From Lachnospirales bacterium (GTDB lineage: Bacteria > Bacillota > Clostridia > Lachnospirales > CAMZNU01), in NCBI GenBank assembly GCA_047973385.1, contig JBKEBX010000024.1, forward strand, positions 5 through 64,004: a DNA stretch of 64,000 nucleotides, given 5' to 3'. Below the pieces are notes generated by a model. The model did not search any database, was not told the DNA's origin, and saw only the letters and a list, made by a program, of their open reading frames with translations. Of the stretch, positions 3,607-61,790 are shown piece by piece. The number at the start of each line of letters is the position of its first letter. Within the stretch, counting starts at the first letter, position 1. The position numbers were made by a program, and so were the translations under genes.

Positions 3607-4329
3607 ATGAAATTTTTAATAGATAGTCACGTTCATTCCCTTTCAAGCGGCCATGCTTATGCTACAATTTATGAAAATATAATTCATGCTAAAAAATTAG
3701 GTTTAGAAGCAATTGCAATTACCGATCATGCTCCTGAGATGCCAGGAACTTGCCATTTATTCCATTTTAACAATTTAAAAGTAATACCTAAAGTTGTTGA
3801 AGGTGTAAGAGTTTTTACTGGTATAGAGCTTAATATATTAGATGTAAACGGTAAAATTGATGCTCCAGAATATACGCTTAAAATGTTAGATGTTAAAATA
3901 GCTAGTATTCATGAAATTTTAAACGATGTAGATGGAATAGAAAATATTACAAAAACCTATGTAAATACAATTAAAAATAACAATATAAATGTAATAGGTC
4001 ACCCTTGTGATATACGTTACCCTTTTAATATTGAAGAAGTTGTTCTTGCCGCTAAGGAACATAATGTTGCTTTTGAAATAAATAATTGTTCTTTAAATAA
4101 AACTTCATATCGTTATGACCCTGATGAGTCAATAATTGATTTGCTTATGTGTTGCAAAAAACATAATGTGTTTGTAACTTGTGGTTCAGATTCTCACTAC
4201 TTAGACACTTTAGGTAATTTTGATAATACATACGAACTTCTATCTCGTATTGATTTTCCAGAAAAACTTATTTTAAATGCAAATTTACAACTTTTCGAAG
4301 ACTTTGTTCAAAGTCATAAAAATAAATAA
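3607..4329 (+). CDS. PHP-domain phosphatase (YcdX-like)
   Basis: 240 aa. IDSHVHS...GHAY...AITDHAPEMPG...GHP...GSDSH are the metal-ligand motifs of the PHP/YcdX family. AGGAGG RBS. Confidence 0.85.
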   Translation: MKFLIDSHVHSLSSGHAYATIYENIIHAKKLGLEAIAITDHAPEMPGTCHLFHFNNLKVIPKVVEGVRVFTGIELNILDVNGKIDAPEYTLKMLDVKIASIHEILNDVDGIENITKTYVNTIKNNNINVIGHPCDIRYPFNIEEVVLAAKEHNVAFEINNCSLNKTSYRYDPDESIIDLLMCCKKHNVFVTCGSDSHYLDTLGNFDNTYELLSRIDFPEKLILNANLQLFEDFVQSHKNK

Positions 4330-4355
4330 TAATAAATAAACGGGGGATTACTAAA

Positions 4356-4676
4356 ATGTCTGATAATTTAAAGAAGTATAATTATAATGATGAGGATATT
4401 CAAATTTTAGTTGATTTAATTTTATTAATTGATAACGAAGAAGATTGCAAAAAATTTTTAGCAGAGCTACTTAGCAAATCAGAATTTACAAGTATTACTC
4501 AAAGAATTAAAATTGCTCATATGCTCCAAGACGGTAAAAAATATCACGAAATTACAGAAACTACGAAAGCTTCAACTACTACAATAAGTAGAGTTAATAA
4601 AGTTTTATCAACTGAAAATAATATGTTTTATGTTATGTTGAAAAAATTAAATAAAATGAAGAAATTAGATAAATAA
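4356..4676 (+). CDS. TrpR-related YerC/YecD family protein
   Basis: 106 aa. FLAELLSKSEF..ITQRIKIAHML.DG..YHEI...T.ASTTTISRVNK matches the YerC/YecD family. Confidence 0.8.
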   Translation: MSDNLKKYNYNDEDIQILVDLILLIDNEEDCKKFLAELLSKSEFTSITQRIKIAHMLQDGKKYHEITETTKASTTTISRVNKVLSTENNMFYVMLKKLNKMKKLDK

Positions 4677-4686
4677 AGGAGTTTAC

Positions 4687-6879
4687 ATGGATTATTTACA
4701 AGGGTTAAACAAAGAACAAAAACAAGGCGTCTTACAAACCGAAGGCCCTTTACTTATTATAGCTGGTGCAGGTTCTGGAAAAACTCTTGTTCTTACTCAT
4801 AGAATATCCCATCTTATTGAACAAGGGATTATGCCAAGTAATATACTTGCTATAACTTTTACGAATAAAGCAGCTAAAGAAATGAAAGAACGTGCAGTTA
4901 ACTTAAATCCAAAGGCTATTGCTTCAACTATTTGTACCTTTCATTCTTTTTGTGTGCGTGTTTTAAGACGAGAACTTAATATACTAGGTCTTGGTGGAAA
5001 CTTTGTAATATACGATGGTGATGATAGTCTAAAGGTGATAAGAGCAATTTTAAAAGAAAAGGGTATTGAAAAAAACGAGCGAATTAAGCCTAAAAGTGTT
5101 TTATCATATATTTCAGGTCTTAAAAACGATTTTGTAACTCCCGAAGAAGCTATGGCACAAGATAAACACGATTACTATTACGAAATCTTAAGCGAGATTT
5201 ACATGGAGTATGAAAAAGCTTTAATAAAATACAATGCCTTTGATTTTAACGATATACTTCTTAAAGCAGTTCAACTTTTTGATAGCTACCCAAATGTTTT
5301 AGAAAAGTATCAAGAAAAATTTAAATATATTATGGTTGATGAGTATCAAGATACAAATACTGTTCAGTATATGCTTGTTCGACAACTTGCTTTTAAATAT
5401 AAAAATATTTGTGTTGTTGGTGATGATGACCAAAGTATTTATGGTTGGCGTGGTGCGGATATTACTAATATTCTGAATTTTGAAAAGGATTATAGTAATG
5501 CTAAAATGTTAAAACTTGAACAAAACTATCGTTCAACTAATGTTATACTTAAAGCTGCCAATAACTTGATTAAACATAACAAAAATCGTAGAGATAAAAA
5601 TCTTTGGAGCGATAGCACAGACAGTAACCCTATTATTTGTAGAAGCTCTGGAAACGATTTTGAAGAAGCAAGATTTGTAGTTTCAGAAATACAAAAGATT
5701 ACGAAAGATAATAAATTTAACGAAATTGCTATACTATATAGAACTAATAATCAATCACGTCTATTTGAAGATGAATTTATACGTTTAAATATACCATACC
5801 AAATCTATGGGGGCGTAAAGTTTTATGACCGTAAAGAAGTTAAAGATATTTTGGCATATTTAAAATATATTTATAATACTAAAGATGAAATTTCTTTAAA
5901 ACGTATTATTAATGAGCCTAAACGAAGTATTGGAACGGTTACGGTCGGTAAATTGGACAACTATTCAAATATAAATAATACATACATTTTAAATGTTTTA
6001 AAAGATGTTGGAGATATAAAAGAATTTAAAAATTCTAGTAAAAAGCTGACTGAATTTTATAAACTAATTGAATATTTAATTGATTTTTCGAGTAAATCAA
6101 CAGTTAAAGATTTGACTTTAGAAGTTATAAAAGCTACTAAATACGAAGATGAACTTTTACTTGAAAATACTGATGAGGCAAGAACACGTATTTCGAATAT
6201 TTATGAACTTGTAGCAAAGGCTGATGAATTTAACAAGATTTATCCCGACGGAACTCTTGGCGAGTTTTTAGAAGAAGTATCTCTTGTAGCTGATGTGGAT
6301 GCCTATGATGAAAATACACCTAAAGTTGTGCTTATGACACTGCATACATCTAAAGGCTTGGAGTTTGAAAACGTTTTCCTTGTAGGTCTTGAAGAAAACC
6401 TATTCCCAAGTATAAATTCTTCTATTGATTTTGATTTAGATGACGAAAAAATCGAAGAAGAACGCCGTTTAATGTATGTTGGTATAACCCGTGCTAAGAA
6501 AAAGTTATATCTTACAAACGCTAATTGCCGTAGACAGTTTGGTAATATGGTTTATAATAAATCTTCGAGATTTATAGACGAAATACCAAAAGATTTACTT
6601 GACCTACCAAAAGAAATAAAGTCAAAATCTACATCATCACCGTCACTTAAATCTATGCTAAATAGCAGAAAAACTACTTCTCTTAAGGACTATTTTGATG
6701 ATAAGCCAAAAAATAAATCCTTAGATTTTGAAGTTGGTGATAAAGTTCGACATATGAAGTATGGTGTATGTGAAGTTTTAGAAATAACTCCTGCAGGTGC
6801 AGACTTTCAAGTTAAACTTAACACAAAGCTTGGGGAAAAATCTTGTATGGGTATTCTTGCTAGGCTTAAGAAAGCTTAA
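4687..6879 (+). CDS. pcrA: ATP-dependent DNA helicase PcrA (UvrD/Rep family)
   Basis: 730 aa. AGAGSGKT Walker A, VDEYQDTN, YGWRGA, EQNYRST, TLHTSKGLEF and VGITRAK motifs are all present. Confidence 0.95.
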   Translation: MDYLQGLNKEQKQGVLQTEGPLLIIAGAGSGKTLVLTHRISHLIEQGIMPSNILAITFTNKAAKEMKERAVNLNPKAIASTICTFHSFCVRVLRRELNILGLGGNFVIYDGDDSLKVIRAILKEKGIEKNERIKPKSVLSYISGLKNDFVTPEEAMAQDKHDYYYEILSEIYMEYEKALIKYNAFDFNDILLKAVQLFDSYPNVLEKYQEKFKYIMVDEYQDTNTVQYMLVRQLAFKYKNICVVGDDDQSIYGWRGADITNILNFEKDYSNAKMLKLEQNYRSTNVILKAANNLIKHNKNRRDKNLWSDSTDSNPIICRSSGNDFEEARFVVSEIQKITKDNKFNEIAILYRTNNQSRLFEDEFIRLNIPYQIYGGVKFYDRKEVKDILAYLKYIYNTKDEISLKRIINEPKRSIGTVTVGKLDNYSNINNTYILNVLKDVGDIKEFKNSSKKLTEFYKLIEYLIDFSSKSTVKDLTLEVIKATKYEDELLLENTDEARTRISNIYELVAKADEFNKIYPDGTLGEFLEEVSLVADVDAYDENTPKVVLMTLHTSKGLEFENVFLVGLEENLFPSINSSIDFDLDDEKIEEERRLMYVGITRAKKKLYLTNANCRRQFGNMVYNKSSRFIDEIPKDLLDLPKEIKSKSTSSPSLKSMLNSRKTTSLKDYFDDKPKNKSLDFEVGDKVRHMKYGVCEVLEITPAGADFQVKLNTKLGEKSCMGILARLKKA

Positions 6880-6902: not shown

Positions 6903-7973
6903 ATGACACTAGAAACTCTTAAAAAAATTTACCGAAGTAAAAATATAAACAAAGTATATAAAGTTAACAAAATGGAGATAAAAGCAAACTGGCATGAGCT
7001 TTTATATGATTTAATTTTTATAATATTTATAGAAAAAATTATAACTATATATATAACTTCTTCTCATACTGCTGATATTAAGTTTGTTTTTGAAATATTG
7101 TTAATTTCTATGATGATTTTGTGGGTATGGAATGAACGTGTACTTCAAACAAACCATATGTATATACTTGAAAATGAGTTAAATGTTCATATACCCCAAT
7201 ACAAATTTTTGATATATATTGAAATGACTATTTTACTACTTTTACTACACAAGCTTGGTACATACCCCTATATTTACTTTTTTGTTAGTATATTTTTAAT
7301 ATCTGTGGTCTTTGAATTTATCTGTATGGAGTGGATAAGACACAAATTGTTTAGTCGTTATAAAAGAGAGTCTAAGGAAATGTATGATGCTGCTAAATCA
7401 TTTTGGGAAATTCGAACAAATAGTATAAACATTGAACATATACTAGAGCGTTTTGGAGTTTTAACTATTTTGTTTTTAGGCGAAACAATGCGAGAAGTTT
7501 TTTTATCTGATACTCATCAACTTGTTTTAATATTGTTTTGTATAATTCTTTTTAATATATTTGAATCCAGCACAAAACTATCTGATTCCTTAAAAGAACA
7601 ATCTATCAAAGAAAGCACCGTTAAGTATAATGTGTTAACAAGATATTTACGACGTTCACTTATATTACTTTTGTTTTTAATTTTGGCTGTTGCCTATACT
7701 CATAAATATCATGTGGAATACCCAGTAATTTTAATTACTGTTATTCTGTTAAATAAGTTCCACCAAGAATATGCATTATTCAAACTTGGAAAAATCTCAT
7801 TAAATAAGTATGAGATAATGTATTATATATACTTGTTTTTCATTACTCTATATGTGTTGCTAATTAAAAACTATAATATATTCACATTGATACTGATTTC
7901 CGTTTTGGCAATTCTTACTATTTTTAAAGATAGTTATCATACTATTGATATTGGCATTGATTTCAAAGAATAA
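6903..7973 (+). CDS. Polytopic membrane protein, LtrA (low-temperature-requirement A)-like
   Basis: 356 aa, multi-TM. The N-terminal WHELLYDLIFIIFI resembles the LtrA WLELFFDLVFV motif. The true start may be the internal Met in KVNKMEIK. Confidence 0.45.
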   Translation: MTLETLKKIYRSKNINKVYKVNKMEIKANWHELLYDLIFIIFIEKIITIYITSSHTADIKFVFEILLISMMILWVWNERVLQTNHMYILENELNVHIPQYKFLIYIEMTILLLLLHKLGTYPYIYFFVSIFLISVVFEFICMEWIRHKLFSRYKRESKEMYDAAKSFWEIRTNSINIEHILERFGVLTILFLGETMREVFLSDTHQLVLILFCIILFNIFESSTKLSDSLKEQSIKESTVKYNVLTRYLRRSLILLLFLILAVAYTHKYHVEYPVILITVILLNKFHQEYALFKLGKISLNKYEIMYYIYLFFITLYVLLIKNYNIFTLILISVLAILTIFKDSYHTIDIGIDFKE

Positions 7974-9420: not shown

Positions 9421-9609
9421 AACATTCTACCTCTTTCATTCAAGTTATTTTAGTATGATAAACATACAGTACTAATTATAATACATATTCTCGTTTTTTT
9501 CAAGTTTTTATAAAAAGTTCTTATAAATAAATTGTAACTTTAGGTAATTTATGCTATAATGTATTTACTCAATAACAAATACACTTAAAAAAAATATGGA
9601 GGATTGATT

Positions 9610-10020
9610 ATGTCAATTATAGAAAATGTTATTAGAATAAATGATAATAATACTCTAAGTTTTGGTAACTACATTGTTAAAGAAAAGCAAAAAGTTTCTG
9701 ATTTTAAATTTGATAATGATTTATACAAATGTAAAACTCATAACGAAGTTACAAGAGTTGAAAAAAATGATTATTTAATTTTTGAATCTGTACCAGGTTC
9801 AACTGTACATAACTTTATGGCAAATGAAGATGAACTTACTTTTTCAATTGAAGGTCATGGCGATACAAAAGTTACAGTAGAATTAGTAGAAAACGAAAAA
9901 TACAATATTACAATAGACGGCGAAAACTTAGGTGTTGAAAAAACAAACTTATCTGGAAAACTTTCTTTTTCATGCGATCTGTTAAATACACCAATAGATA
10001 TAGTTATCACAAAAAAATAA
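9610..10020 (+). CDS. Hypothetical protein (beta-rich, no recognised family)
   Basis: The ORF track starts at TTG 9604. ATG at 9610 lies 6 nt after GGAGGA and is the likelier start. Confidence 0.5.
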   Translation: MSIIENVIRINDNNTLSFGNYIVKEKQKVSDFKFDNDLYKCKTHNEVTRVEKNDYLIFESVPGSTVHNFMANEDELTFSIEGHGDTKVTVELVENEKYNITIDGENLGVEKTNLSGKLSFSCDLLNTPIDIVITKK

Positions 10021-12012: not shown

Positions 12013-12750
12013 GGATACCCCTCCAATAAACCATATACTTATAGTATATCATAAATATCGTATTTTTCAACAGTTATGTTGAAAAAAAATAAATAATTTA
12101 TAGTTTTCAACAAAAAAAAACCATGCGAACATAAAAAACACCTATTTTCTTGAATTTCTATTGTTGATAATTTTATAACTTTATCTATTTTACCTGTGGA
12201 TATGTGTATAACTTTGTTAATAACTTAATATTTCAAATTAAGTCCTTACTTTAAGCTATTTGTTATATTTAAGAATTTATATAAATCCCCAAAATAATGT
12301 TAATAACTTTTTACGAAAATATTACAAATGTTTGTCATAAAATTAATATCTAAACTTATTTTCGGTAAAAATCTAATTGATATTGTAAAAATACTATATT
12401 TTTAACGATTTCTTATAATATTGCAACTATTTTTGAAAAAATTTCATTTTTTTTAGCTGAAATTTACCATTCATAAAAGCTTTTGAATGTCAATAACAAA
12501 AAAAAGAAAAGTTATTAACATACCTTTTCTTTTTTAACACAAATATGCCACATTTTCCTGTTAGTAACTATATTAAAATTACTAATATCTTTGTGGATAT
12601 GTTTATAACTTTGTGTATAACTTTCATATTTCATTTTTATATTATAAAAATCTTGTAAAATAGCCCTTAAAAAACTAATTTTTTATTGTTTAATTTCTTA
12701 ATTCATAAAAATTGTTTTAAAAATCTGTTGATAAGTTTTTAATAATTTTT
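12013..12750. promoter_or_regulatory. 738-bp non-coding region with a cluster of DnaA-box-like 9-mers (candidate DnaA-box cluster outside oriC)
   Basis: Matches to TGTGGATAA (rc of TTATCCACA): 12162 TGTTGATAA, 12195 TGTGGATAT, 12203 TGTGTATAA, 12215 TGTTAATAA, 12298 TGTTAATAA, 12488 TGTCAATAA, 12512 TTATTAACA, 12592 TGTGGATAT, 12600 TGTTTATAA, 12612 TGTGTATAA, 12726 TGTTGATAA. Two 32-bp direct repeats (12195-12226 and 12592-12623, 29/32 identical) each carry three abutting boxes. No ORF is present in the track. Confidence 0.5.
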
Positions 12751-18481: not shown

Positions 18482-19255
18482 TCAACAACTTAAATTAACA
18501 TCTATGACAATGGTATACTTTTCTCCAACTTTATCAACTTTATAATTGGCAATTTCTCTACCTTCATTTAAAAACTCCATAGCCTCATCAAGTGTATCTG
18601 TAAGTAGTGAAATATCTCTAAAATTTCTATGTATACTAAAGTTTTCGTTAAAGTTTTCAACTAACTTATCAAACTCATAAAAACTCATGTTTTTAAATAA
18701 CGCAATTTCTAAAAGTTCAAGTTGTTTTTTCTCATCATCAACTTTTAGTATAACTTTTCCATATTGCTCTGTCAAGTTATTTGTTATTAAAAAATTTTTT
18801 ATTTTGTCTTTTAAAGTTAATAATCTAAGTTTTTCAAAAAGTATATTTTTACTTAAACCCACTTTTTCTGCAAGTTCTTGAACTGTTAAATTTTGCTGTT
18901 TCATAAGCTTAACATAACATTCAGCTTCATCAAAATAGTTTAAATCACATTTTTGAATATTTTCTATAAAAGACAACATAGCTGAATCTTCATCACTACT
19001 ATTTACGATTATTGTTGGAATATATGTAAGCCCTATAAGTTTACATGCTTTAAGGCGTCTTTCTCCAGCTACAAGTTCAAATTTACCATCACATACTCTA
19101 ACAGTTATAGGTTGCAAAATACCGTTTTCTTTTATTGATTTAGCAAGACTATATAAATTATCTTTATCAAATTGCTTTCTTGGTTGGTATTTGTTTGGTA
19201 ATATACTTTCAATTTTCAAACTAACAATTTCTTTTTCAAATTTTAAACTTCCCAT
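18482..19255 (-). CDS. ParB/Noc-family DNA-binding protein (Spo0J paralogue)
   Basis: 257 aa. ParB N-terminal box QPRK.F, the GERRLKA (GERRxRA) motif and an HTH region. It occupies the position next to rsmG where noc sits in Bacillus. It ends with TGA, the only TGA terminator I found in the window. Confidence 0.8.
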   Translation of the reverse strand: MGSLKFEKEIVSLKIESILPNKYQPRKQFDKDNLYSLAKSIKENGILQPITVRVCDGKFELVAGERRLKACKLIGLTYIPTIIVNSSDEDSAMLSFIENIQKCDLNYFDEAECYVKLMKQQNLTVQELAEKVGLSKNILFEKLRLLTLKDKIKNFLITNNLTEQYGKVILKVDDEKKQLELLEIALFKNMSFYEFDKLVENFNENFSIHRNFRDISLLTDTLDEAMEFLNEGREIANYKVDKVGEKYTIVIDVNLSC

Positions 19256-28546: not shown

Positions 28547-29326
28547 CTATCTATATAACCCAAAATCATTTTTTATAATCAAATATTTTGTTAAGAAAAA
28601 TAATACAATAGCTTCAACAGCATAAAAAGTAAAATTAAAAATACTAGGTTTTATCATAACATCTGATGTTAAAATAAAACTATCTATAAACTCTAGAACA
28701 AAATTAAATGCATTAAAATTTATAATTTTAAAAATAATATAAATACTAAAAAGTCCTAGACAAAAAATTAAACTTGTTTTAGATGAATATCTAAAAACTA
28801 TAAAAGCTACAAACATTCCTAACAATGTATTTACATTTAAAACTAATAAAATGTATAATGTATTTATTAATGAAAAACTTAAAAATAAAGTGTGTACTGC
28901 TGTTAAAACAATAGTTGTAATCACATTCATTATAAAAAATGCTATAAAAATATTTTTCCAAAAACATTTTCTACTTTTACTACATAAAAAATAATCAGTA
29001 CCGAAGTCATAAGAATATACCCACCCTTGTATAAAAGTTACAAATATTGTAACACCAAATATACTCTTATAAAAATTGAAAGTATATTCTTCATTTCCGA
29101 GATAACTTATAGAAATTGTTATTAAATGTATAAAATTTTCTATAGGATTATTTCCTGTTAAAACTTCTCTAAAACTTTCATTTTCTATAAATGTAGCACT
29201 TGAATAAGAACATAAGAAACTTAAAAAAATCAAACCTATAATAGGCATAAAAATATACATAAAAAACAAAGTAATTAACCAGTTTTTATTTATTTCTTTA
29301 ATCGTGTTTTTTAAACTATAAGTCAT
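28547..29326 (-). CDS. Polytopic membrane protein, probable permease partner of the adjacent ABC ATPase
   Basis: 259 aa, at least 6 hydrophobic segments. It overlaps the ATPase gene end by 11 nt, which suggests operon coupling. No family recognised. Confidence 0.5.
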   Translation of the reverse strand: MTYSLKNTIKEINKNWLITLFFMYIFMPIIGLIFLSFLCSYSSATFIENESFREVLTGNNPIENFIHLITISISYLGNEEYTFNFYKSIFGVTIFVTFIQGWVYSYDFGTDYFLCSKSRKCFWKNIFIAFFIMNVITTIVLTAVHTLFLSFSLINTLYILLVLNVNTLLGMFVAFIVFRYSSKTSLIFCLGLFSIYIIFKIINFNAFNFVLEFIDSFILTSDVMIKPSIFNFTFYAVEAIVLFFLTKYLIIKNDFGLYR

Positions 29327-30209: not shown

Positions 30210-30570
30210 TAAACTCACCTTCCTCAATAAATTTGATAAGTGTTTCTTTATCTACTTCAATTTTTTCAGCTTCTTCAACTAATTCTTTAACTTTTTTTTC
30301 AAAAAAATCTTTTTGTCTGTTTTTTATTATTTTTTCCCTTGCACCCTTTGATACAAACATACCTATACCTCTTTGTTTATATAAAATTCCTTCATCTACT
30401 AAAATAGTAAATCCTTTTCTTGCTGTTGCTGGGTTTATTTTGTATTCTACTGAAAATTCTGTTGTTGATGGTATCTTTTCTTCTTCTTTGTATACATAAA
30501 TAAGTATATTATCTTTTATATATTCTGCAACTTGTATAAATATTGGATATTCATTATTTATATTCAACAA
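30202..30570 (-). CDS. GntR-family transcriptional regulator, YtrA subfamily
   Basis: 122 aa. N-terminal wHTH (LPS..EFSVEYKINPATARKGF..L..EGILY..RG.G.FV) with a short C-terminal helix, typical of the YtrA type. First gene of a GntR-ABC-permease operon. Confidence 0.85.
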   Translation of the reverse strand: MLNINNEYPIFIQVAEYIKDNILIYVYKEEEKIPSTTEFSVEYKINPATARKGFTILVDEGILYKQRGIGMFVSKGAREKIIKNRQKDFFEKKVKELVEEAEKIEVDKETLIKFIEEGEFNE

Positions 30571-31691
30571 AAACCCTCCTTCGTTAGTTTAACAGTTAGT
30601 TACTCAAGTAATTAACTAAATAATATCATAAAAACTAATTGTTGTCAATATCTAAATTTAAGGGAATATCTAAAAACTTGATTTTAAAAAAATTTTAGAT
30701 ATTCCTTTGTAAAGTTTTCCACAGATTTTTTTACAATAATAACTTTTTTTCAAGTAAAATGTTAAAAATTATATAGTAAAATAAAGTTTATGTATTTTTT
30801 GTTAAATTTCTATTAAGATTTTTTGTTAAACTACACTTTTCAACAAAAAATAATCCTTTAAAATCATAGTTATTAACAAAGTTACTAACATTGTGTTAAT
30901 AACTTTGTATTTCTCATATTATAGCCATTTAGTAGAGTTTTAAAAAGATTTGTGTATAAATATTGATTTTTATAAAAAAACCTTTATTATAGCCATTTTT
31001 TCTTGTGATAACTTGTTTATAACTTTTTAATTTAAAAATAAGTTATTATTGTTGTTGATAACTATATTTTAAACATTTTTATTTATATTGATATACCTAA
31101 AATATTAAATATATATTTTTTCAACAAAAAGTTATAAACATCTTTGTTAATATTTTTAATGTTTAAAACTATTAGTTTTTTAGCTATAAAATCATAAAAA
31201 ATCTGATGTTTGTGCATAAAATTCACTTGTTAACATAGTCATTTGAAAGTTTTACACAGGACTTTACCTTATTATGAGTATATTATATATATAAATTGTT
31301 AATAAATATTTTCCACAGGAGTTTTTTTTTTAGATTTTTAAAAATAGCCTGTCTATTAATATATTAATATTTTTTATTTATTTTATATTATTTATATATT
31401 TATTATTAATAATTAATTATAAGATAAAAATATAAATTGGTGGAAGAAATATATAAAAAACTATTTACAATATGGCGAAAAACATTTAAAATATATATAG
31501 AGTTAATTGTAAGAAAATATAATTTCTTGTAATAATTAAATATAGTTAAGTAAATTAATATAAATTATCATAAATTTTTATTGTAATAAAATGTTAAAAA
31601 TTTAATAAAAGACAATATAATTTATGATGTTTTTTTTAATATATATTTTAATAATATTTTTCATTTATAAATTTAAAATAATATTTTAATA
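30571..31691. other. Chromosomal replication origin region (oriC): DnaA-box cluster plus AT-rich unwinding region
   Basis: Forward boxes: TTTTCCACA at 30715-30723 and 31309-31317, TTTTACACA at 31250-31258, TTATAAACA at 31132. Reverse boxes: TGTTAATAA at 30894 and 31297, TGTGTATAA at 30951, TGTTTATAA at 31014, TGTTGATAA at 31054, TGTGCATAA at 31211. The region lies between the minus-strand rpmH block and plus-strand dnaA, where gene orientation switches. Confidence 0.8.
31321..31691. other. Extreme-AT tract, candidate DNA unwinding element
   Basis: About 370 bp almost devoid of G/C (e.g. TATTAATATATTAATATTTTTTATTTATTTTATATTATTTATATATTTATTATTAATAATTAATTATAAG), immediately right of the last TTTTCCACA box and abutting dnaA. 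Confidence 0.55.
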
Positions 31692-32903
31692 TTGTATACT
31701 GAAAAAAACAAAGACAAAGATTTTATAATGCATAGAAAAAAAGATATTGTTTTAGATACAATTAAATCTATAAATCCTGTTATTCTTGATTTTAAGATAA
31801 ATACAGTTTTAGACGATAGTTTAAATGATAAAAATTCAATAAATAATACACAATTTATAGATATTGATAAAGCTAAAAGTATGGCAAACTTGCAACCTAG
31901 ATATACTTTTGAAAATTTTGTAAAAGGTGATTGTAATGATTATGCTTTTAATATTTCAAAAGTTGTAGCAAAAGAACCTGGTCAAATAGATACAAATCCT
32001 TTGTTTTTTTATGGTGGAGTTGGTCTTGGTAAAACCCATCTTATGCAATCTATTGGTAATAGAGTTTTAGAAAATAGTGTTACAAAAAAAGTTTTATATA
32101 CTTCTTTTGATACTTTTTTTAATGAATATACTGATTCACTTAGTTATAAAGATAGTGCTGTTTTTAGACAAAAATATAGTGAACTTAATATTTTACTTAT
32201 TGATGATATACAGTTTATTGCTAAAAAAGAAAAAGCTCAAGATGAACTTTTTCATATATTTGAGTTTTTAAGAAACAGTAATGTACAAATTGTGTTTACA
32301 TCAGATAGACCACCTAAGGAAATCGAAAATCTTACTGATAGACTTTCTTCAAGATTTTCTAACTGTATGATTGATATTACTAAACCTGACCTTGAAACTA
32401 GAATAGCTATTATTAAAAATAAGGCATCTATTAAAAATGTGCATTTTGAAAACGATATAGTTAATTATATCGCTCAAAATATTAATACTAATGTACGTGA
32501 ACTTGAAGCTGCTTTTAATAAAGTTGTCCAATTTGAAAAATTTTCAGGTAAAAAAGTTGATTTAGACATTGTAAAAGAGATTTTAACACCTTATATTCAA
32601 GGTGAAAATAGAAAAGCTATTACTGTTGAATTTATTATTGATGTTACTTCAAAATATTATAATGTTAGTGTTTCTGATATTTTAGGTAAAACAAGAAAGG
32701 CTGATATTGTTTATCCAAGACAAATGGCAATGTATTTATCTAGAAAACTTACTGATAAATCTTTACCACTTATTGGCGAAAAATTTAATCGTGATCATAC
32801 TACTGTTTTATCTTCAATAAATCGTATTGACGAGTATATTAGAAATAAAACTGGAACAACACAAGAAATAACTGACCTTGAAAATAATATTAGAGTAAAT
32901 TAA
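31692..32903 (+). CDS. dnaA: Chromosomal replication initiator protein DnaA (short, atypical N-terminus)
   Basis: PRYTFENFV, Walker A GGVGLGKTHL, Walker B LLIDDIQF, VRELEAAF, and domain IV (YPRQMAMYL...DHTTV). The start is uncertain: TTG 31692 (ORF track) or ATG 31728, neither with a clear SD. Confidence 0.95.
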   Translation: MYTEKNKDKDFIMHRKKDIVLDTIKSINPVILDFKINTVLDDSLNDKNSINNTQFIDIDKAKSMANLQPRYTFENFVKGDCNDYAFNISKVVAKEPGQIDTNPLFFYGGVGLGKTHLMQSIGNRVLENSVTKKVLYTSFDTFFNEYTDSLSYKDSAVFRQKYSELNILLIDDIQFIAKKEKAQDELFHIFEFLRNSNVQIVFTSDRPPKEIENLTDRLSSRFSNCMIDITKPDLETRIAIIKNKASIKNVHFENDIVNYIAQNINTNVRELEAAFNKVVQFEKFSGKKVDLDIVKEILTPYIQGENRKAITVEFIIDVTSKYYNVSVSDILGKTRKADIVYPRQMAMYLSRKLTDKSLPLIGEKFNRDHTTVLSSINRIDEYIRNKTGTTQEITDLENNIRVN

Positions 32904-48823: not shown

Positions 48824-48978
48824 GTCGAGCTTCAATTTTTGTGTAGTATAATTTTTTTCTAACTTTTTTCTACACTTTCTGTCAATTTCCATAATCTTAG
48901 TTTTTTTACTTGATATATTTTTAAATAAAATGTATAATTTAATTATATATTTAAAGAACAAAAAGGAGCGAAAAATTT

Positions 48979-51667: not shown

Positions 51668-52345
51668 ATGTTTAAAACTAATAATGATTGGGATTTGTTA
51701 CTTGAAGAAGAATGTAAACTAGAGTATTTTAAAAATTTGTGGAGTTTTGTTGAAGATGAATATAAAAACAAAGTGATTTATCCACCAAAAGAGCTTATTT
51801 TTAATGCTTTAGAAAAAACTTCTTTTAAAGATACAAATGTTGTTATTTTAGGGCAAGACCCATATATAAGAGAAAATCAAGCTATGGGATTGTCTTTTTC
51901 AGTTCCAAAGGGTGAGAAAGTCCCACCGTCACTTAAAAATGTTTTTAAAGAAATGCAAAATGATTTGAATATTGATTTTGATATAAATAAATCAGGTGAT
52001 TTAAGTAATTGGGCAAAAGAAGGTGTACTTCTTTTAAACAGTACACTAACTGTTGAAGAAGGAAAAAGTGGTTCACATAAAAATAAGGGTTGGGAAAAAT
52101 TTACCGATGAGATAGTTAGACTTTTAAGCGAAAAAGATACACCTATTGTGTTTATGCTATGGGGTAACTACGCTAAGGAAAAAGGTAAGATTATTTCTAA
52201 AAACAGTGATATTAAACATTTAATACTAGAAGCATCCCACCCAAGTCCATTAGCTCGTGGTGCATATTTTGGCTCAAAACATTTTTCGAAGGCAAACAAT
52301 TTTTTAAAAGATAATGATTTAGAACCTATTAATTGGGAGATTTAG
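51668..52345 (+). CDS. ung: Uracil-DNA glycosylase
   Basis: 225 aa. ILGQDPY, GVLLLN and HPSPLA motifs. Confidence 0.96.
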   Translation: MFKTNNDWDLLLEEECKLEYFKNLWSFVEDEYKNKVIYPPKELIFNALEKTSFKDTNVVILGQDPYIRENQAMGLSFSVPKGEKVPPSLKNVFKEMQNDLNIDFDINKSGDLSNWAKEGVLLLNSTLTVEEGKSGSHKNKGWEKFTDEIVRLLSEKDTPIVFMLWGNYAKEKGKIISKNSDIKHLILEASHPSPLARGAYFGSKHFSKANNFLKDNDLEPINWEI

Positions 52346-52353
52346 GAGGATAT

Positions 52354-52806
52354 ATGGACACTTTTATTTTTAACATAGATGAATTTAACTTTAAGGTAAG
52401 TATATGTGATAAAGTTGTTCATTTTCTTGAGATTACTAATGAACCTACAACTAAAATTCCAAAAAATTATAAATGGTTTGTAAATAGAATGGAAAATTAT
52501 TTTATTGGAAAAGATACTTTATCAGATATAGAGGTTTATCAAGAAGGTACGGTCTTTCAAAAAAAAGTATGGGACACCCTTAGGACAATTCCCTATGGTG
52601 AGGTTATAACATATAAGGAATTAGCTATAAAGTATGGAAATGTAAAAGCAACTCGTGCTGTTGCAAATGCCAATGGCAAAAACAAAATATCAATACTTGT
52701 GCCATGACATAGGGTTATTGCAAGTGATGGATCACTTGGTGGGTTCTCGGCGATTGGTGGTATAAAAACAAAGGCAAGATTATTAGAAATAGAAAAAAAT
52801 AAATAA
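52354..52806 (+). CDS. ogt: Methylated-DNA--protein-cysteine methyltransferase (Ogt/MGMT) with in-frame TGA (52705-52707) at the catalytic Cys codon: candidate selenoprotein, or a pseudogene
   Basis: The upstream part ends ...TRAVANANGKNKISILVP-TGA. The same frame continues HRVIASDGSLGGFSAIGGIKTKARLLEIEKNK-TAA (52804-52806). Together these reproduce the PCHRV active-site region with TGA in place of Cys. ATG at 52354 follows TAGGAGGA. Confidence 0.85.
52721..52738 (+). promoter_or_regulatory. Candidate bacterial SECIS hairpin
   Basis: CAAGTGA-TGGA-TCACTTG: perfect 7-bp stem, 4-nt loop containing GG, starting 13 nt after the TGA. Confidence 0.3.
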
Positions 52807-52826: not shown

Positions 52827-54920
52827 ATGGATAAAGACTATTTAGAAGCAAGAGATATAAGTTGGCTAAGATTTAATGAAAGAGTTTTAGAAGAAGCTTT
52901 TGATGAGAAAAAACCCATTGCAGAAAGGCTTAAATACATATCCATTTTCTACTCAAATCTAGATGAATTTTATATGGTGCGTATTGCAACACTAAAACTT
53001 TTAAAAGGAAAAAAAGATAATTTAACTGGAAGAAGTTATGATAAAATTTTAAAAGAGTCTTTAGCATTTATACAAAATGTTCTTGTAAAAGCTGACTATG
53101 TATATAGTTATTTAATAAAAAACCCACTAATTAAAAATGATGATTTTGGTCTATTTAAAATTGATGAGCTTAATAGTGTTCAAATAAGTATAATAGACAA
53201 TTATTATGAAGAGTCTTTAAAAGATGAAATAAAATTTAAGGAAAACACAATTCCAAAGTTAACGAATAAAAGGTTATATTTAGCTTTAATTGACAAAGAT
53301 TCCACAGTTAAAGTTGCTTCATATTCTTTAAAACATGATAGAATATATGAGTTTGAAAAAAATAAATTTATTTTAGTTGAGGACATAGTAAAGTATAATA
53401 TGCTTAAAGACTATGAAAATGATGATTATGGTATATGTAGTTTTAGAGTTGTTAGAGAGGCACATAACCCTATAACTTATAACGATACTGATGATATAGA
53501 AATGCTTACTATAAATATTATGCAACAACTTGAAAAACGTGACAAAGGTCAAGTGTCTTATATACAAATAGAAGCTCTAGACAATAACGCTCACAAGATT
53601 GTTGTTGAAAAAATAAAAGAAAAGCTTTTACTTGACAATTTAAATGTACATGAGTTTACAAATACTCCTATTGAAACATCTTTTATATTTGGTTATGTTG
53701 ATAAAATAGCCAAATATGATAAATCATTAGTCTTTAAGGAACATGATATAAAATATCCCGTTACTTTTTCAAGAGAAAGCTCACTGTTTTCTCAAATTAG
53801 CGAAAAGGATAGAGTTGTATTTTTCCCAAATGAGTCCTTTGAAGATTCTGTATTACAATTTTTGAAAGAGTCTTGCGAAGATGAGTTTTCAACAGAAATT
53901 TTTATAACAATTTATAGAATAAAACGAAATTCCGACCTTATGAAATATCTTGTTATCGCTGCTGAAAAGGGTAAGAAAATAAATGTAATTGTTGAGTTTA
54001 AAGCAAGGTTTGATGAACAGCACAACATAGAAACAGCGAATATTTTAAAAGAACTTAACTGTAATGTTTATACAACACAACATTCTATGAAAGTTCATGC
54101 TAAAATTTTAATGGTTAAAAGGCTTGTAAATGATATAGTTAGTTATTATAGTTTTTTAAGTACAGGAAACTTCCACGAGGGTACGGCAAAGCTTTATACA
54201 GACCTTGGGGTTTTTACAGCTAACACAACTATTGGTCAAGATGTGGAATGTTTTTTCCATGCAGTTGATAATCAGCTACCAACAGTACCTTTATCAACTC
54301 TTTATGCATCACCAAAAAACTTAAAAACAAAAATTGTTAACTTAATAGAGCAAGAAATAATATTCCATAAATTATATGATAATGGTAGAATTATATTAAA
54401 AATGAATTCTTTGTATAATGAGGAAATTATTGATAGGCTTGTTCAAGCATCAAAAGCAGGTGTAAAAATAGACTTAATATGTCGTGGTATTTGTGGTGTT
54501 GTACCAGACCACCCTAGTACAAGCAACATTAGGGTTGTAAGCCTTGTTGGTAGATACTTAGAACATTCAAGAGTATATTATTTTAATAACAACAACAACA
54601 AAAAAGTATATATTTCATCGGCAGATTTATTAGATAGAAATCTTGACCATAGATATGAATTATTTACTCCTATAAAGGATAAAGACGTAGCTGAAATTTT
54701 GTATCAATATCTACTTATGTCCTTAAATGATAACACAAATATGTATGTTGAACAGTCTAATCGAAGTTATACAAAGGTTAAAGCAAAATCTGGCTTTGTA
54801 GATGTTCAAATGGATACCATAGAGATTTTAGAAAATCATAAAGAGAGATTTATAAAAGAAAAGCCTAAAAGCGAAGATAAGAGCTTTGTTAAAAATTTAA
54901 AAACAATGTTTTCAAAGTAA
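52827..54920 (+). CDS. ppk: Polyphosphate kinase 1
   Basis: 697 aa. SWLRFNERVLEEA at the N-terminus and two PLD-like HKD-type regions (KVHAKILMV, LEHSRVYYF). Confidence 0.95.
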   Translation: MDKDYLEARDISWLRFNERVLEEAFDEKKPIAERLKYISIFYSNLDEFYMVRIATLKLLKGKKDNLTGRSYDKILKESLAFIQNVLVKADYVYSYLIKNPLIKNDDFGLFKIDELNSVQISIIDNYYEESLKDEIKFKENTIPKLTNKRLYLALIDKDSTVKVASYSLKHDRIYEFEKNKFILVEDIVKYNMLKDYENDDYGICSFRVVREAHNPITYNDTDDIEMLTINIMQQLEKRDKGQVSYIQIEALDNNAHKIVVEKIKEKLLLDNLNVHEFTNTPIETSFIFGYVDKIAKYDKSLVFKEHDIKYPVTFSRESSLFSQISEKDRVVFFPNESFEDSVLQFLKESCEDEFSTEIFITIYRIKRNSDLMKYLVIAAEKGKKINVIVEFKARFDEQHNIETANILKELNCNVYTTQHSMKVHAKILMVKRLVNDIVSYYSFLSTGNFHEGTAKLYTDLGVFTANTTIGQDVECFFHAVDNQLPTVPLSTLYASPKNLKTKIVNLIEQEIIFHKLYDNGRIILKMNSLYNEEIIDRLVQASKAGVKIDLICRGICGVVPDHPSTSNIRVVSLVGRYLEHSRVYYFNNNNNKKVYISSADLLDRNLDHRYELFTPIKDKDVAEILYQYLLMSLNDNTNMYVEQSNRSYTKVKAKSGFVDVQMDTIEILENHKERFIKEKPKSEDKSFVKNLKTMFSK

Positions 54921-58225: not shown

Positions 58226-60295
58226 TTACTCACTTGTAACAATTACATTAAATTTGCTTACAACTTCAGGGCTATCCGATAAATACATTTTATATAATGT
58301 ATAGTTTGATTTATAAATTTCATCTTCAACCTTTAGAATTTTTTTAGAAATATTGTTAAAATATACAAAACTTGCAATTGCCTCATCGGAAATTATTTTA
58401 CTAATATTGTCTATATCGCCAGTATCACTCGCAAATTTTCCACTTAAATCAATGTTTAGTGTATAGTTTATTTTATTATCCGTTAATTCAACTCTATCTT
58501 TTTTAGAATAATCTTTTATAATAAAATCATTATCAATAACTAAATCTTTTTGAATATTTTTATCCCCCTCTATAAACATATACCCTCTTGTATATTTTTC
58601 ATCACTTTCTAGAACATGATTATTATTTATAAATATATTTCCTGTATCTGATATAAAGGTATCATCATCTACTTTTATATTATTTAAGATGAAAAAGTCA
58701 TAGTTACTTTGGTTATATAAAAGCTCAGACACATTACTTGAAAAGGCAAGTTTTTCAATGGTAAAGCCCTTTGATATAATTGTTTTTATATTTTCAAAAT
58801 TATAATCACAAGTGTATATATTACTTTTACGGCTAAGTTCAGTATTGTTATAAAATAAATCTATAAGTTCATTTACATGAGTTTCATTTTTGTAAAAATT
58901 CTCTCCAAGTATAAGAGTTTTTGTATGACTGAAATCTAAAGTGCTAGTTGTTTTGTTATCAAGTAGCTTTATAGCTTCTATAATGGAACTACCCTCTGCT
59001 GTAATTATATTAGCTTCATTTTCTTGTTCATTTTTAACATAGGCATCAAGGGGTGCAGTGAATAAATGTAAGGTGTATTTGTTATCTTCATAGGTTATAT
59101 ATAGACTTTCTACAAAGTCACGGCTACTAATGTTTGCTTTAGTACATGAACTTAAAAGTATAGAGGATATACAAAGAGTAATTACACTAAGTTTAATTTT
59201 ATTTTTATTTCTAAAAATTTTTCTTATAAAAAAAATAAATATGCAAACAAAAGGTATACATAGTAAAAAAAATAAGTTAAAAGAAAAAATTATAATACCT
59301 ACAAGTTTAATGTTTAAGTATTTATTAATAAATAAAGTAATAAGAAAGGTTGTAATAACTAAGATTTCATCAATTTTAACTTTAGATGAGCTTTTTATAT
59401 TTTTAAACAAAATAGAAGAATAGAAAAGCCCGGCTGAAATTGTAAAAACACTGCCAACTATCCATAAAGAAAAAACAAGAGCATCTTGACGTTCTATAAA
59501 ATCAAAGGGTAAAGTTATTGAATTTAAAATCATAAGAACAGGATAGTTTTCTTCTAACATTTGTTTGTTAAAAACGATTATAGTTATTAAAGTTGTTATA
59601 GATGTAAAAATAGTTGTAGCCATAACAGTATAAAGAGAAGCTTTTTGAAATTCGTCCTTGTTTTTTAAAAATGGTATCAATATATATATATATTCAAGTC
59701 CAGAAAAAGCCATAAGTCCAAAATATATAGAATATGATAGGTTTTTGTTATTGTTATTGAGGTTTATTCCTATGGGGAAAATATTTGTATAGTCTGCATC
59801 AAAACTTACAATAATAAAAAAAATAGCGAAAACTATAAGTAGTATAATAGCTAAAAATTCAGCAAGTCGACCTCTTGTTTCGATACCTTTTTTTGAGAAG
59901 TAATAACAAAAGGAAATCACTAATATATAAATTACAATTTTTGATGATTTAGGTAGTAAAATACTTGTAACTAAAGTTGTAAAATAACTTAGTTCATAGG
60001 ATATAAAAAGTATATTTTTAATTATAAATAACCAGATTATAATGCTACTTATTTTGCCAAAATATCCTTGTAAAAAACCAAGATATGAGTAACAATCATC
60101 TTTTTTATATAAAAACAAATAGGTAGAAAGAGCAAGGTAAACTATAAGTCCTGAAATGAAAACTATAATCCAACTATCTTGTTTTGTATAGTTATATAAA
60201 ATACTAGGTAATGCTAAAAAAGAAGTACTAAATATTTCTAAAACTAAAATACATATAAGCTGATGCATTGATATTTTTTTATTAGATAAATTCAT
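58226..60295 (-). CDS. Spore germination receptor GerAB-like permease fused in-frame to a GerAC-like lipoprotein domain
   Basis: 689 aa. Residues 1 to ~360 form a 10-TM GerAB/APC-type permease. They are followed by ...RNKNKIKLSVITLCISSILLSSC(384)TKANISSRDF..., a signal-peptide/lipobox-like segment, and then a ~300-aa GerAC-type domain. Confidence 0.8.
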   Translation of the reverse strand: MNLSNKKISMHQLICILVLEIFSTSFLALPSILYNYTKQDSWIIVFISGLIVYLALSTYLFLYKKDDCYSYLGFLQGYFGKISSIIIWLFIIKNILFISYELSYFTTLVTSILLPKSSKIVIYILVISFCYYFSKKGIETRGRLAEFLAIILLIVFAIFFIIVSFDADYTNIFPIGINLNNNNKNLSYSIYFGLMAFSGLEYIYILIPFLKNKDEFQKASLYTVMATTIFTSITTLITIIVFNKQMLEENYPVLMILNSITLPFDFIERQDALVFSLWIVGSVFTISAGLFYSSILFKNIKSSSKVKIDEILVITTFLITLFINKYLNIKLVGIIIFSFNLFFLLCIPFVCIFIFFIRKIFRNKNKIKLSVITLCISSILLSSCTKANISSRDFVESLYITYEDNKYTLHLFTAPLDAYVKNEQENEANIITAEGSSIIEAIKLLDNKTTSTLDFSHTKTLILGENFYKNETHVNELIDLFYNNTELSRKSNIYTCDYNFENIKTIISKGFTIEKLAFSSNVSELLYNQSNYDFFILNNIKVDDDTFISDTGNIFINNNHVLESDEKYTRGYMFIEGDKNIQKDLVIDNDFIIKDYSKKDRVELTDNKINYTLNIDLSGKFASDTGDIDNISKIISDEAIASFVYFNNISKKILKVEDEIYKSNYTLYKMYLSDSPEVVSKFNVIVTSE

Positions 60296-60296
60296 T

Positions 60297-61790
60297 TTAA
60301 AACTCCTTTTTTTGTCTAGTTTTTTGACTATCCTTAGCGAAGATAGGGCGTTTAATCATTTTTGTAAAAGGCATTCTTATAAGAGTGTCTTGGTGAGGCT
60401 CAAAATCATTGTTAGAACTTACAAAAGGATACATGTAAGGTATTCCAAAACTGTTAAGTGACATTAAATGAATTAAAAGGGTTAGCATTGATAAAGTTAA
60501 CCCTAAAAAACCAAACAAACCACTCATTATTGTTATAAAGTATTTTACAAGTCTTATTCCGTTAGTTAGGGCAATACTTGGTATAGCAAAGGTTGAAATT
60601 GCAGTTAAAGCCACAACTATAACAACTGTAGGTGAAGTAAGTCCAGCCTCAACAGCTGATTGACCTATTATAAGTCCTCCAACAATTCCAAGAGTTCCAC
60701 CTACTCGACTAGGCAGCCTAAGCCCTGCTTCACGAAGAAGTTCAAAAGCAAGTTCCATAACTAACATTTCAACAAGTGGCGTAAAGGGTACAGTTGTTCT
60801 TGTTCCAGCAATTTTAAACATTAAATCTCGACTTATAAGAGATGGGTGAAAGATGGTTATAGCAAGGAAAATACCAGGTAGTCCAATAGATATAATAAAG
60901 GCTAAAAATCTAAGTATTCTAAGTGATGAAGAAAGGAAAAAGTTATCATAATAATCCTCACTACTTTGAAAAAATACTGAAAAGATTGTAGGTAAAATCA
61001 TTACTTGAGGAGTATTATCCATTATAAGTACAATTCTGCCTTCTAAAAGTGCCGAACTTGCTTTATCAGGTCTTTCAGTTTTTTGTACTTGAGGAAAGGG
61101 GCTTTTGTTCCTACCAAACAAAAGTTCCTCAAAGTAGCATAAGTCCAAAACTGCATCAATATTTAAGCTTTCAATCATTTGTATGATTTTATCTACTAAT
61201 TCCTTATAAGCAATATCTTCTATATACATTACACCAATATCAGTTTTACTTCTTCTACCAACCTTAGTTTGATAAATCTTAAGTCTAGTATCTTTTATTC
61301 TACGGCGAATTAAAACGGAGTTAAACCTAAAGACTTCTGAAAAACTTTCTCTTGAACCCTCAAGAACAACTTCGTTTTCAGCTGATTGTATTCCCCTATT
61401 AGGAAAACCCTTTGTAGATATAATAAGTGCCCTTGTAGAATTTTCAACTAAAACAAGTGTATCTCCTGATAAAATGGCATCTAAAACTTTATCAAGATTT
61501 GTTTCCTCTACATAATCAACTGTTGTAATCCCTTGTTTTTTTACAAGGTCATATATGTTTTTATCATCTTTGTCAAGAAAGGTAAGAGCTTCTTTCATTC
61601 CAATTACAATAGATTCAACAACAGAATGTTCAATAAGTTTTCTATCTGTCATTAAATCAAAGTAACATAAATATACTTTTATATCGTGGTTTTTTCCAAC
61701 AAATAATTCTTTTTCAACTAAATCATTACAGTCAATAAGTTTATCACGTAGAAAATTAATATTACAATTTATTTCACTAGATACATTCAT
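60297..61790 (-). CDS. Spore germination protein, GerAA/GerKA family
   Basis: 497 aa. Soluble N-domain plus C-terminal TM bundle (PLVEMLVMELAFELLREAGLRLP, GIVGGLIIGQ). One nucleotide separates it from the downstream gene. Confidence 0.9.
   Translation of the reverse strand: MNVSSEINCNINFLRDKLIDCNDLVEKELFVGKNHDIKVYLCYFDLMTDRKLIEHSVVESIVIGMKEALTFLDKDDKNIYDLVKKQGITTVDYVEETNLDKVLDAILSGDTLVLVENSTRALIISTKGFPNRGIQSAENEVVLEGSRESFSEVFRFNSVLIRRRIKDTRLKIYQTKVGRRSKTDIGVMYIEDIAYKELVDKIIQMIESLNIDAVLDLCYFEELLFGRNKSPFPQVQKTERPDKASSALLEGRIVLIMDNTPQVMILPTIFSVFFQSSEDYYDNFFLSSSLRILRFLAFIISIGLPGIFLAITIFHPSLISRDLMFKIAGTRTTVPFTPLVEMLVMELAFELLREAGLRLPSRVGGTLGIVGGLIIGQSAVEAGLTSPTVVIVVALTAISTFAIPSIALTNGIRLVKYFITIMSGLFGFLGLTLSMLTLLIHLMSLNSFGIPYMYPFVSSNNDFEPHQDTLIRMPFTKMIKRPIFAKDSQKTRQKKEF

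Follow-up and report, generated by a model that had tools for sequence, protein, structure and literature searches.

A predicted selenocysteine form of O6-alkylguanine-DNA alkyltransferase in a clade of Clostridia

Methylated-DNA–protein-cysteine methyltransferases of the Ogt/MGMT family that carry selenocysteine (Sec) have been predicted since the C. hydrogenoformans genome of 2005, in which CHY0809 was described as a Sec-containing member with a stem-loop after the UGA (PMC1287953). The Sec-MGMT family was found again in the Olavius symbiont selenoproteome (PMC1976440), accounts for 1 sequence against 2,879 Cys sequences in the Global Ocean Sampling (GOS) selenoproteome (PMC2398784), and is classed as “predicted with high confidence” by two reviews of prokaryotic selenoproteins, from 2022 and 2026 (PMC9312934; PMC13188914). 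When human AGT (hAGT) is given Sec145 through an engineered UAG/EF-Tu system, it protects E. coli from N-methyl-N'-nitro-N-nitrosoguanidine (MNNG) and tolerates N137A, a change that kills the Cys enzyme (PMC4150793); a selenolate as single-turnover alkyl acceptor is already established in principle. Here we describe an ogt gene, at 52354..52806 of a 64-kb stretch of DNA (herein the window), whose catalytic codon is an in-frame UGA. The window is nearly all of a 64,435-bp contig from a metagenome-assembled genome (MAG) labelled “Lachnospirales bacterium” at NCBI. We consider it highly probable that the gene encodes a functional Ogt/MGMT that uses Sec as its single-turnover alkyl acceptor. An earlier note on this DNA, made from its letters alone, had left it open whether such proteins were already known; the novelty was overstated, the family having been catalogued since 2005 (PMC1287953, PMC1976440, PMC2398784, PMC13188914).

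The ogt gene and its in-frame UGA

The frame opens with ATG at 52354 and closes with TAA at 52804-52806. Ahead of the UGA it reads ...ANGKNKISILVP (in a longer quotation, ...RAVANANGKNKISILVP), and the codons that follow would be translated only if the UGA is decoded. The earlier note had described a TGA at the catalytic Cys of PCHRV between two intact halves, and all of its coordinates were right on re-reading. The features of the gene are as follows.

52354..52806, + strand: complete ogt/MGMT coding sequence, 150 codons counting the UGA (translation, PF01035, TIGR00589, PDB match)
52344..52349, + strand: Shine-Dalgarno sequence AGGAGG, 4 nt 5' of the ATG at 52354 (read from the sequence)
52705..52707, + strand: in-frame UGA at the alkyl-acceptor position of P-C-H-R-V (translation; alignment)
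52708..52803, + strand: 32 codons 3' of the UGA, HRVIASDGSLGGFSAIGGIKTKARLLEIEKNK, the C-terminal part of the active-site domain

With Cys put at the UGA, the product matches Pfam PF01035 (DNA_binding_1; 8.9e-32, 109.2 bits against a cut-off of 27) and NCBIfam TIGR00589 (ogt; 3.2e-31, 107.2 bits against a cut-off of 46.4). In the PDB, phmmer aligns residues 25-149 with M. tuberculosis OGT (MtOGT, 4bhb/4wxc; ~1e-26), and the TGA falls on the catalytic Cys. The active-site motif in this alignment is LVP-[UGA]-HRV; the Arg finger (R101-A-V) and N110, the Asn of ANGxN, are both present. The alignments with homologues and with MtOGT both line the UGA up with the conserved Cys, the Sec/Cys pairing that had been proposed from the sequence alone. 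The N-terminal Methyltransf_1N domain (PF02870), which most homologues have, gave no match in the product at E <= 0.001. PF02870 is not essential for membership of the Ogt/MGMT family, and the N-terminal domain is likely a diverged form, because the MtOGT alignment already begins at residue 25.

On sequence grounds the protein is assigned unambiguously to the O6-alkylguanine-DNA alkyltransferases, and the location of an in-frame TGA exactly on the catalytic codon is highly non-random. We predict that the product is the selenoprotein form of methylated-DNA–protein-cysteine methyltransferase, in which UGA 52705-52707 would be a Sec codon and the nucleophile would be Sec instead of Cys. The UGA would then not be read as a stop during translation: a hairpin beginning 13 nt downstream (loop UGGA) would be bound by SelB, the elongation factor specific for Sec, with its Sec-tRNA(Sec); Sec would be inserted at the UGA, and translation would go on through the final 32 residues, which complete the active-site domain. 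O6-alkylguanine would be flipped out by this P-U-H-R-V protein, and its alkyl group would pass irreversibly to the selenolate. We infer that the protein repairs DNA by this transfer, and that the genome carries selA, selB, selC and selD.

Recurrence of the UGA and the hairpin that follows it

The earlier note had proposed aligning orthologues from relatives, and the TGA at the Cys codon recurs in two of them. One, from Lachnospirales bacterium VLC_046 (L015), has ung and ogt adjacent with galT upstream, and its product is 53% identical to that of the window over the full length, the unusual N-terminal region included; this is far closer than any other homologue. The second lies on the contig of protein P0127 (L144), again with ung next to ogt, and its TGA is followed by the conserved continuation HRVIGSDGSLKGFTSIGGVKTKEKLIALERKHKDDLLK* (asterisk, stop codon). 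The three ogt genes share ~50% amino acid identity, the same unusual N-terminal region and the same ung-ogt adjacency. When the 117 residues before the TGA were compared exhaustively by HMMER with 1.84 billion cluster representatives, only two further non-self proteins matched over the whole N-terminal region, P0127 (117 aa) and the L015 protein P0128 (121 aa); both stop exactly at ...VP, and that search yielded no member of the clade with Cys. With the N-terminal 96 residues, a word-indexed search of proteins recovered P0001 alone (a protein discussed below), a search of metagenome contigs with N-terminal patterns picked from the alignment of window and L015 confirmed no relative, and exact look-up of the 117-aa, 124-aa and Cys versions in a collection of 15 billion proteins gave no match. 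From the sequences compared, this clade of Clostridia appears to be fixed for UGA at the catalytic codon.

Translation beyond the UGA leaves a trace in the divergence of the three genes. Over the 30 codons after the TGA, the three pairs are 63-70% identical in amino acids, the proportion of synonymous differences (pS) is 0.77-0.83 and so saturated, that of nonsynonymous differences (pN) is 0.18-0.19, and pN/pS is 0.23-0.24. Before the TGA, pN/pS is 0.55 overall and 0.32 in the C-terminal domain; the part after it is at least as constrained. These codons are under purifying selection, and, because the ratio is this low while synonymous sites are saturated, the stretch that they make up has been translated for as long as the clade has been diverging.

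TGA forms also occur elsewhere, scattered among Cys forms in several phyla. The pattern ...NGxN-x6-P-TGA-HRV, scanned over 185,579 species genomes, gave 22 matches; 17 proved to be genuine MGMT genes in which TGA occupies the Cys codon and the frame beyond it is intact. Their genomes comprise seven Fusobacteriaceae (including Propionigenium maris DSM 9537 and Psychrilyobacter), six Desulfobacterota-type MAGs, an Oscillospiraceae MAG, a Planctomycetota MAG, Gillisia hiemivivida and L015. Among 117 metagenomic homologues with the same flanking motif and any TGN codon at the site, the codon is TGC in 81, TGT in 35, TGA in 1 and TGG in none. Four further cluster representatives (P0135, P0172, P0178 and P0180) likewise end at ...(I/V)P before the Cys codon, with the motif variants ANNKN and ANHRN; since they end there with other motifs, TGA-form MGMTs are more diverse than those of the 17 genomes that the DNA pattern picked out.

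The hairpin after the UGA is a putative bacterial selenocysteine insertion sequence (bSECIS). As the earlier note had described, it has a perfect 7-bp stem and a UGGA loop; counted from the UGA, the stem begins after 13 nt and the loop after 20 nt. The 45 nt that follow the UGA have an RNAfold energy of -9.5 kcal/mol; the centroid structure is the 7-bp hairpin. The bacterial SECIS geometry that had been claimed for it is borne out by every constraint of the published consensus (PMC13188914), listed here beneath the feature itself.

52721..52738, + strand: putative bSECIS upper stem-loop; stem CAAGUGA (52721-52727) / UCACUUG (52732-52738), loop UGGA (52728-52731)
Apical loop, consensus 3-9 nt: UGGA, 4 nt
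Upper stem, consensus 4-16 bp: 7 bp
Loop positions 1 and 2, consensus G in either: G at position 2
UGA to loop, consensus 16-37 nt: 20 nt
Minimum free energy (MFE), consensus <= -7.5 kcal/mol: -9.5 kcal/mol

Taken alone, the window hairpin is weak evidence, its energy not being above chance; it is the comparison between genes that makes it convincing. We scored ungapped stems of >= 5 bp whose loop starts 18-25 nt after the codon and has G as its first or second base. Such a hairpin is found in 17/19 TGA forms and in 7/116 Cys forms (Fisher 3e-14), the TGA forms being not independent but drawn from ~8 lineages, six of which pass. At least six different stem sequences occupy the same place:

Window: CAAGUGA/UCACUUG
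L144: UAGUGA/UCACUA
L015: GUGACG/CGUUGC
Oscillospiraceae: CCGAUG/CAUCGG
Fusobacteriaceae: GUAAGU/ACUUAC
Desulfo types: CGACGGG/CUCGUCG
Planctomycetota: 9-bp GC stem

The L144 hairpin lies in the register of that of the window and differs by one compensatory pair (A18-U33 to U18-A33), both bases being at third codon positions. Two TGA forms fail the criterion, those of a Desulfovibrionaceae genome (L005) and of Gillisia (L010). L005 still folds into a hairpin, though a bulged one, whose UGGA loop lies 20 nt from the UGA; Gillisia is the only TGA form without such a hairpin. The SECIS-geometry hairpin is specific to TGA forms.

The Gillisia hiemivivida gene (NZ_VORY01000010.1, 7821-7864, − strand) has its TGA at the Cys codon within an altered motif, LWIVSP*HRV, lacks the SECIS-geometry hairpin and retains Tyr at the position of hAGT Tyr158. 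Its TGA is probably an ordinary nonsense mutation and makes a useful negative contrast.

How the UGA is read

The alternative that survives best, improbable as we judge it, is that the UGA is decoded as something other than Sec. Trp could be inserted by a near-cognate or suppressor tRNA, which would give a PWHRV damage sensor of the alkyltransferase-like (ATL) type; Cys could be inserted by a UGA-reading tRNA or a SelB-dependent route; or UGA could be turning into a sense codon in this lineage. Termination at UGA is weak where C comes next, which counts for decoding of this kind, and purifying selection after the TGA shows that the sequence is translated, not which residue is inserted. TGA is also a rare terminator, as the earlier note had remarked: the 46 window genes end with TAA in 32 cases, TAG in 13 and TGA in 1, and this last gene (ParB/Noc-like, 18482-19255, − strand) has a TAA four codons later. 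Such usage is nonetheless merely borderline low for a Firmicute of 27% GC (~p 0.05, on a 10% TGA-stop background for low-GC Clostridia that was assumed, not measured). A protein with Trp at the site is already on record: P0001, 99% identical and reading “PWHRV”, stands in a public protein collection where a gene caller applied genetic code 4 to a short low-GC contig (L001; Logan SRR30067236_10586, 870-1322). The DNA of that contig has TGA, and P0001 is a gene-calling artefact.

A general reassignment of UGA is contradicted by the window itself. Its 46 genes, 16,664 codons in all, hold no in-frame TGA except that of ogt, and 96/96 Trp codons are TGG; code 4 (TGA = Trp) and code 25 (TGA = Gly) are thereby ruled out, the window uses the standard genetic code, and the ogt TGA is neither a code-4 Trp nor a code-25 Gly. 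The Trp alternative of the earlier note, as a code-4 reading, falls with them. The absence of TGG from the site in all 117 motif-matched homologues also speaks against Trp, and the hairpin of SECIS geometry that the TGA forms carry would be needless for a simple suppressor. Sec, rather than Cys or Trp, is the residue that we would place at the UGA.

That the gene is a pseudogene, in which a TGT/TGC to TGA nonsense mutation inactivated a Cys-type ogt so that only a 117-residue fragment is made, we regard as very unlikely. One transversion would suffice, the Sec machinery is a prediction, and the Gillisia gene, with a TGA and no hairpin, resembles such a case. Yet three orthologues, with ~50% of their residues different and their synonymous sites saturated, share the same TGA; their 30 codons after it keep a pN/pS of 0.23-0.24, with no frameshift or extra stop and with similar stop positions; and the two nearest of the 1.84 billion representatives both end at the catalytic codon. 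A random inactivating mutation would rarely fall on that one codon of 150, and not three times. The recent nonsense mutation considered in the earlier note was rejected on the same evidence, the sharing of the TGA by diverged orthologues and the purifying selection after it. The NCBI protein accessions of neighbouring genes (GalK MFV0440982.1, Ung ...984, Ppk1 ...986, ABC ATPase ...987) leave ...985 for the gene between ung and ppk1, so that ogt seemingly has a protein record, whereas a pseudogene in the annotation pipeline PGAP would have no number; from this numbering, which is weak evidence, ogt appears to hold a record and not to be flagged as a pseudogene.

A sequencing or assembly error at 52705-52707, likewise raised before, has a negligible chance of being the explanation: the source is a MAG contig, in which single-base errors occur, but the same TGA is present in L015, in L144 and in an independent Logan assembly (L001, SRR30067236) that differs from the window by one synonymous single-nucleotide polymorphism in ogt and an 8-bp intergenic indel.

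Several results weigh against Sec at the catalytic position. No selA, selB, selD, tRNA-Sec or second selenoprotein gene lies within the 64-kb window, and ARAGORN found no tRNA-Sec in the window, where Rfam gives only four tRNAs, or at the 17 TGA-form loci, which at <= 8 kb are uninformative. The papers on the family that were consulted here report no experimental Se incorporation for any natural Sec-MGMT. By folding energy, the 60 nt after the TGA do not stand out from dinucleotide shuffles (z = +0.76), and synonymous recodings (n = 5000) equal or beat the SECIS-geometry hairpin in 4.7% of cases, a marginal result, or in 14.7% where MFE is the measure; energy is accordingly given no weight as an argument for Sec. 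Rfam has no SECIS or other family at the hairpin site, as is expected because bacterial SECIS elements are heterogeneous. The swap of Cys for Sec at the alkyl acceptor that the earlier note had proposed is supported by the recurrence of the TGA in L001, L015, L144 and other lineages, by purifying selection and by a hairpin specific to TGA forms.

Gene neighbourhood, active-site variation and known systems

The window has a GC content of ~27% and contains dnaA-dnaN-recF with a switch of GC skew near 31-35 kb; its GerA-type germination genes indicate that the organism is a spore-forming Firmicute. The genes that flank ogt are as follows.

51668..52345, + strand: ung, uracil-DNA glycosylase, 5' neighbour of ogt (Pfam PF03167)
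52827..54920, + strand: ppk1, polyphosphate kinase, 3' neighbour of ogt, 20 nt past the ogt stop (Pfam PP_kinase domains)

Together with galK and galT they form one same-strand run, galK-galT-ung-ogt-ppk1. From 48.9 kb to 55 kb the + strand shows no terminator-like site, the best promoter-like site (48910-48938) lies upstream of galK, and the five genes are probably co-transcribed. A trio of PHP-domain, TrpR-like (YerC-type) and PcrA-UvrD genes adjoins ogt in L015 (4446-7690, − strand) and stands ~46 kb from it in the window (3607-6879, + strand); ung and ogt have therefore stayed together despite rearrangement.

Other features of the window were recorded in passing. Five DnaA-box-like 9-mers (1 mismatch) lie in a gap of 19% GC upstream of dnaA (30570-31692), where the GC skew changes sign, and this gap is likely oriC. 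A second cluster of six such 9-mers is at 12160-12735 (12.16-12.73 kb), between signal peptidase and rhomboid genes; the total count of DnaA-box-like 9-mers in the window is only marginally over that of shuffles. An open reading frame (ORF) of 689 aa at 58226-60295 (− strand) has Spore_permease (GerAB-type) and GerAC N-terminal domains, an apparent GerAB-GerAC fusion, and adjoins a GerA gene at 60297-61790. Three ORFs, of 356, 138 and 259 aa, are without a Pfam match at E <= 1e-5 (6903-7973, + strand; 9604-10020, + strand; 28547-29326, − strand); the last, beside an ABC ATPase and a GntR regulator, is probably the membrane partner of that ATPase.

The TGA forms share a further residue. At the position of hAGT Tyr158 and MtOGT Tyr139, Phe is found in 18/18 hairpin-bearing TGA forms from at least seven lineages, in a comparison that took in the window (Phe131, 52744-52746) and loci L002-L021, L076 and L144; the 118 Cys forms have Tyr in 92 and Phe in 26 (22%). 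Of the PDB entries, the one that the window protein matches best is 4WXC, a Y139F mutant of MtOGT. The association of Phe with TGA may reflect co-adaptation to the selenolate or merely shared ancestry. It is a tentative suggestion, and one we think rather doubtful, that natural Sec-MGMTs are a co-adapted active-site variant that arose repeatedly, beyond plain swaps of Cys for Sec. If it is true, the selenolate form may differ in the range of substrates it accepts, in its kinetics, or in how well it withstands oxidative or nitrosative inactivation, and the three-member Clostridia clade would be a natural system for asking why a suicide protein would pay for selenocysteine.

For annotation, the consequence is that ogt should be given as a 150-residue selenoprotein, in place of a 117-residue fragment, a pseudogene or a code-4 “PWHRV” protein. 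The principle is unchanged, since prediction of the family dates from 2005 and engineered human AGT works with Sec as its alkyl acceptor. A spore-forming Clostridia clade, seemingly fixed for UGA, is added to a rare selenoprotein family; what is modestly new is this clade, with its UGA, divergent N terminus and ung-ogt pair, together with the Fusobacteriaceae TGA forms, which include a cultured strain, and the Phe pattern. That strain, Propionigenium maris DSM 9537, offers a tractable organism for the first biochemistry on a natural Sec-MGMT.

Compared with known systems, the window protein belongs by sequence to the same fold family as the Cys-type Ogt/Ada-C/MGMT enzymes (MtOGT 4BHB, E. coli Ada-C 1SFE, human AGT 1EH6), with which it has in common the motifs IPYG, RAV (Arg finger), ANGxN, P-x-HRV and a C-terminal LLExE; the Asn of its ANGxN is the equivalent of hAGT N137. 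It differs from them in the nucleophile codon, UGA, and in the Phe that replaces hAGT Tyr158 or MtOGT Tyr139. ATL proteins such as E. coli YbaZ/eAtl and S. pombe Atl1 carry the motif PWHRV. They have the same domain, and a UGA read as Trp would give that motif here; the window protein, in contrast, has TGA instead of TGG, keeps an N-terminal domain, and has nearest relatives that are all Cys or TGA forms. ATL membership was rejected, TGA being no Trp codon in the window and TGG occurring in 0/117 relatives. Engineered human AGT C145U, like the window protein as we read it, has Sec at the alkyl-acceptor position; for the engineered enzyme, repair of O6-methylguanine damage in vivo was shown by experiment (PMC4150793). 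That system is artificial, UAG-based and EF-Tu-dependent and has no SECIS, whereas the window gene would use the natural UGA/SECIS/SelB route. The closest counterparts are CHY0809 (ABB14497.1) and the catalogued Sec-MGMTs, which, like the window gene, combine PF01035, a UGA for the active-site Cys and a stem-loop directly after it. They are rare relative to Cys forms (GOS, 1 against 2,879), as is the TGA form among the motif-matched metagenome homologues here (1/117). Compared with CHY0809 by description, the window gene comes from another lineage, a spore-forming Clostridia MAG of 27% GC, and its clade is set apart by an N-terminal region diverged below recognition by Pfam PF02870 and by the conserved adjacency of ung and ogt.

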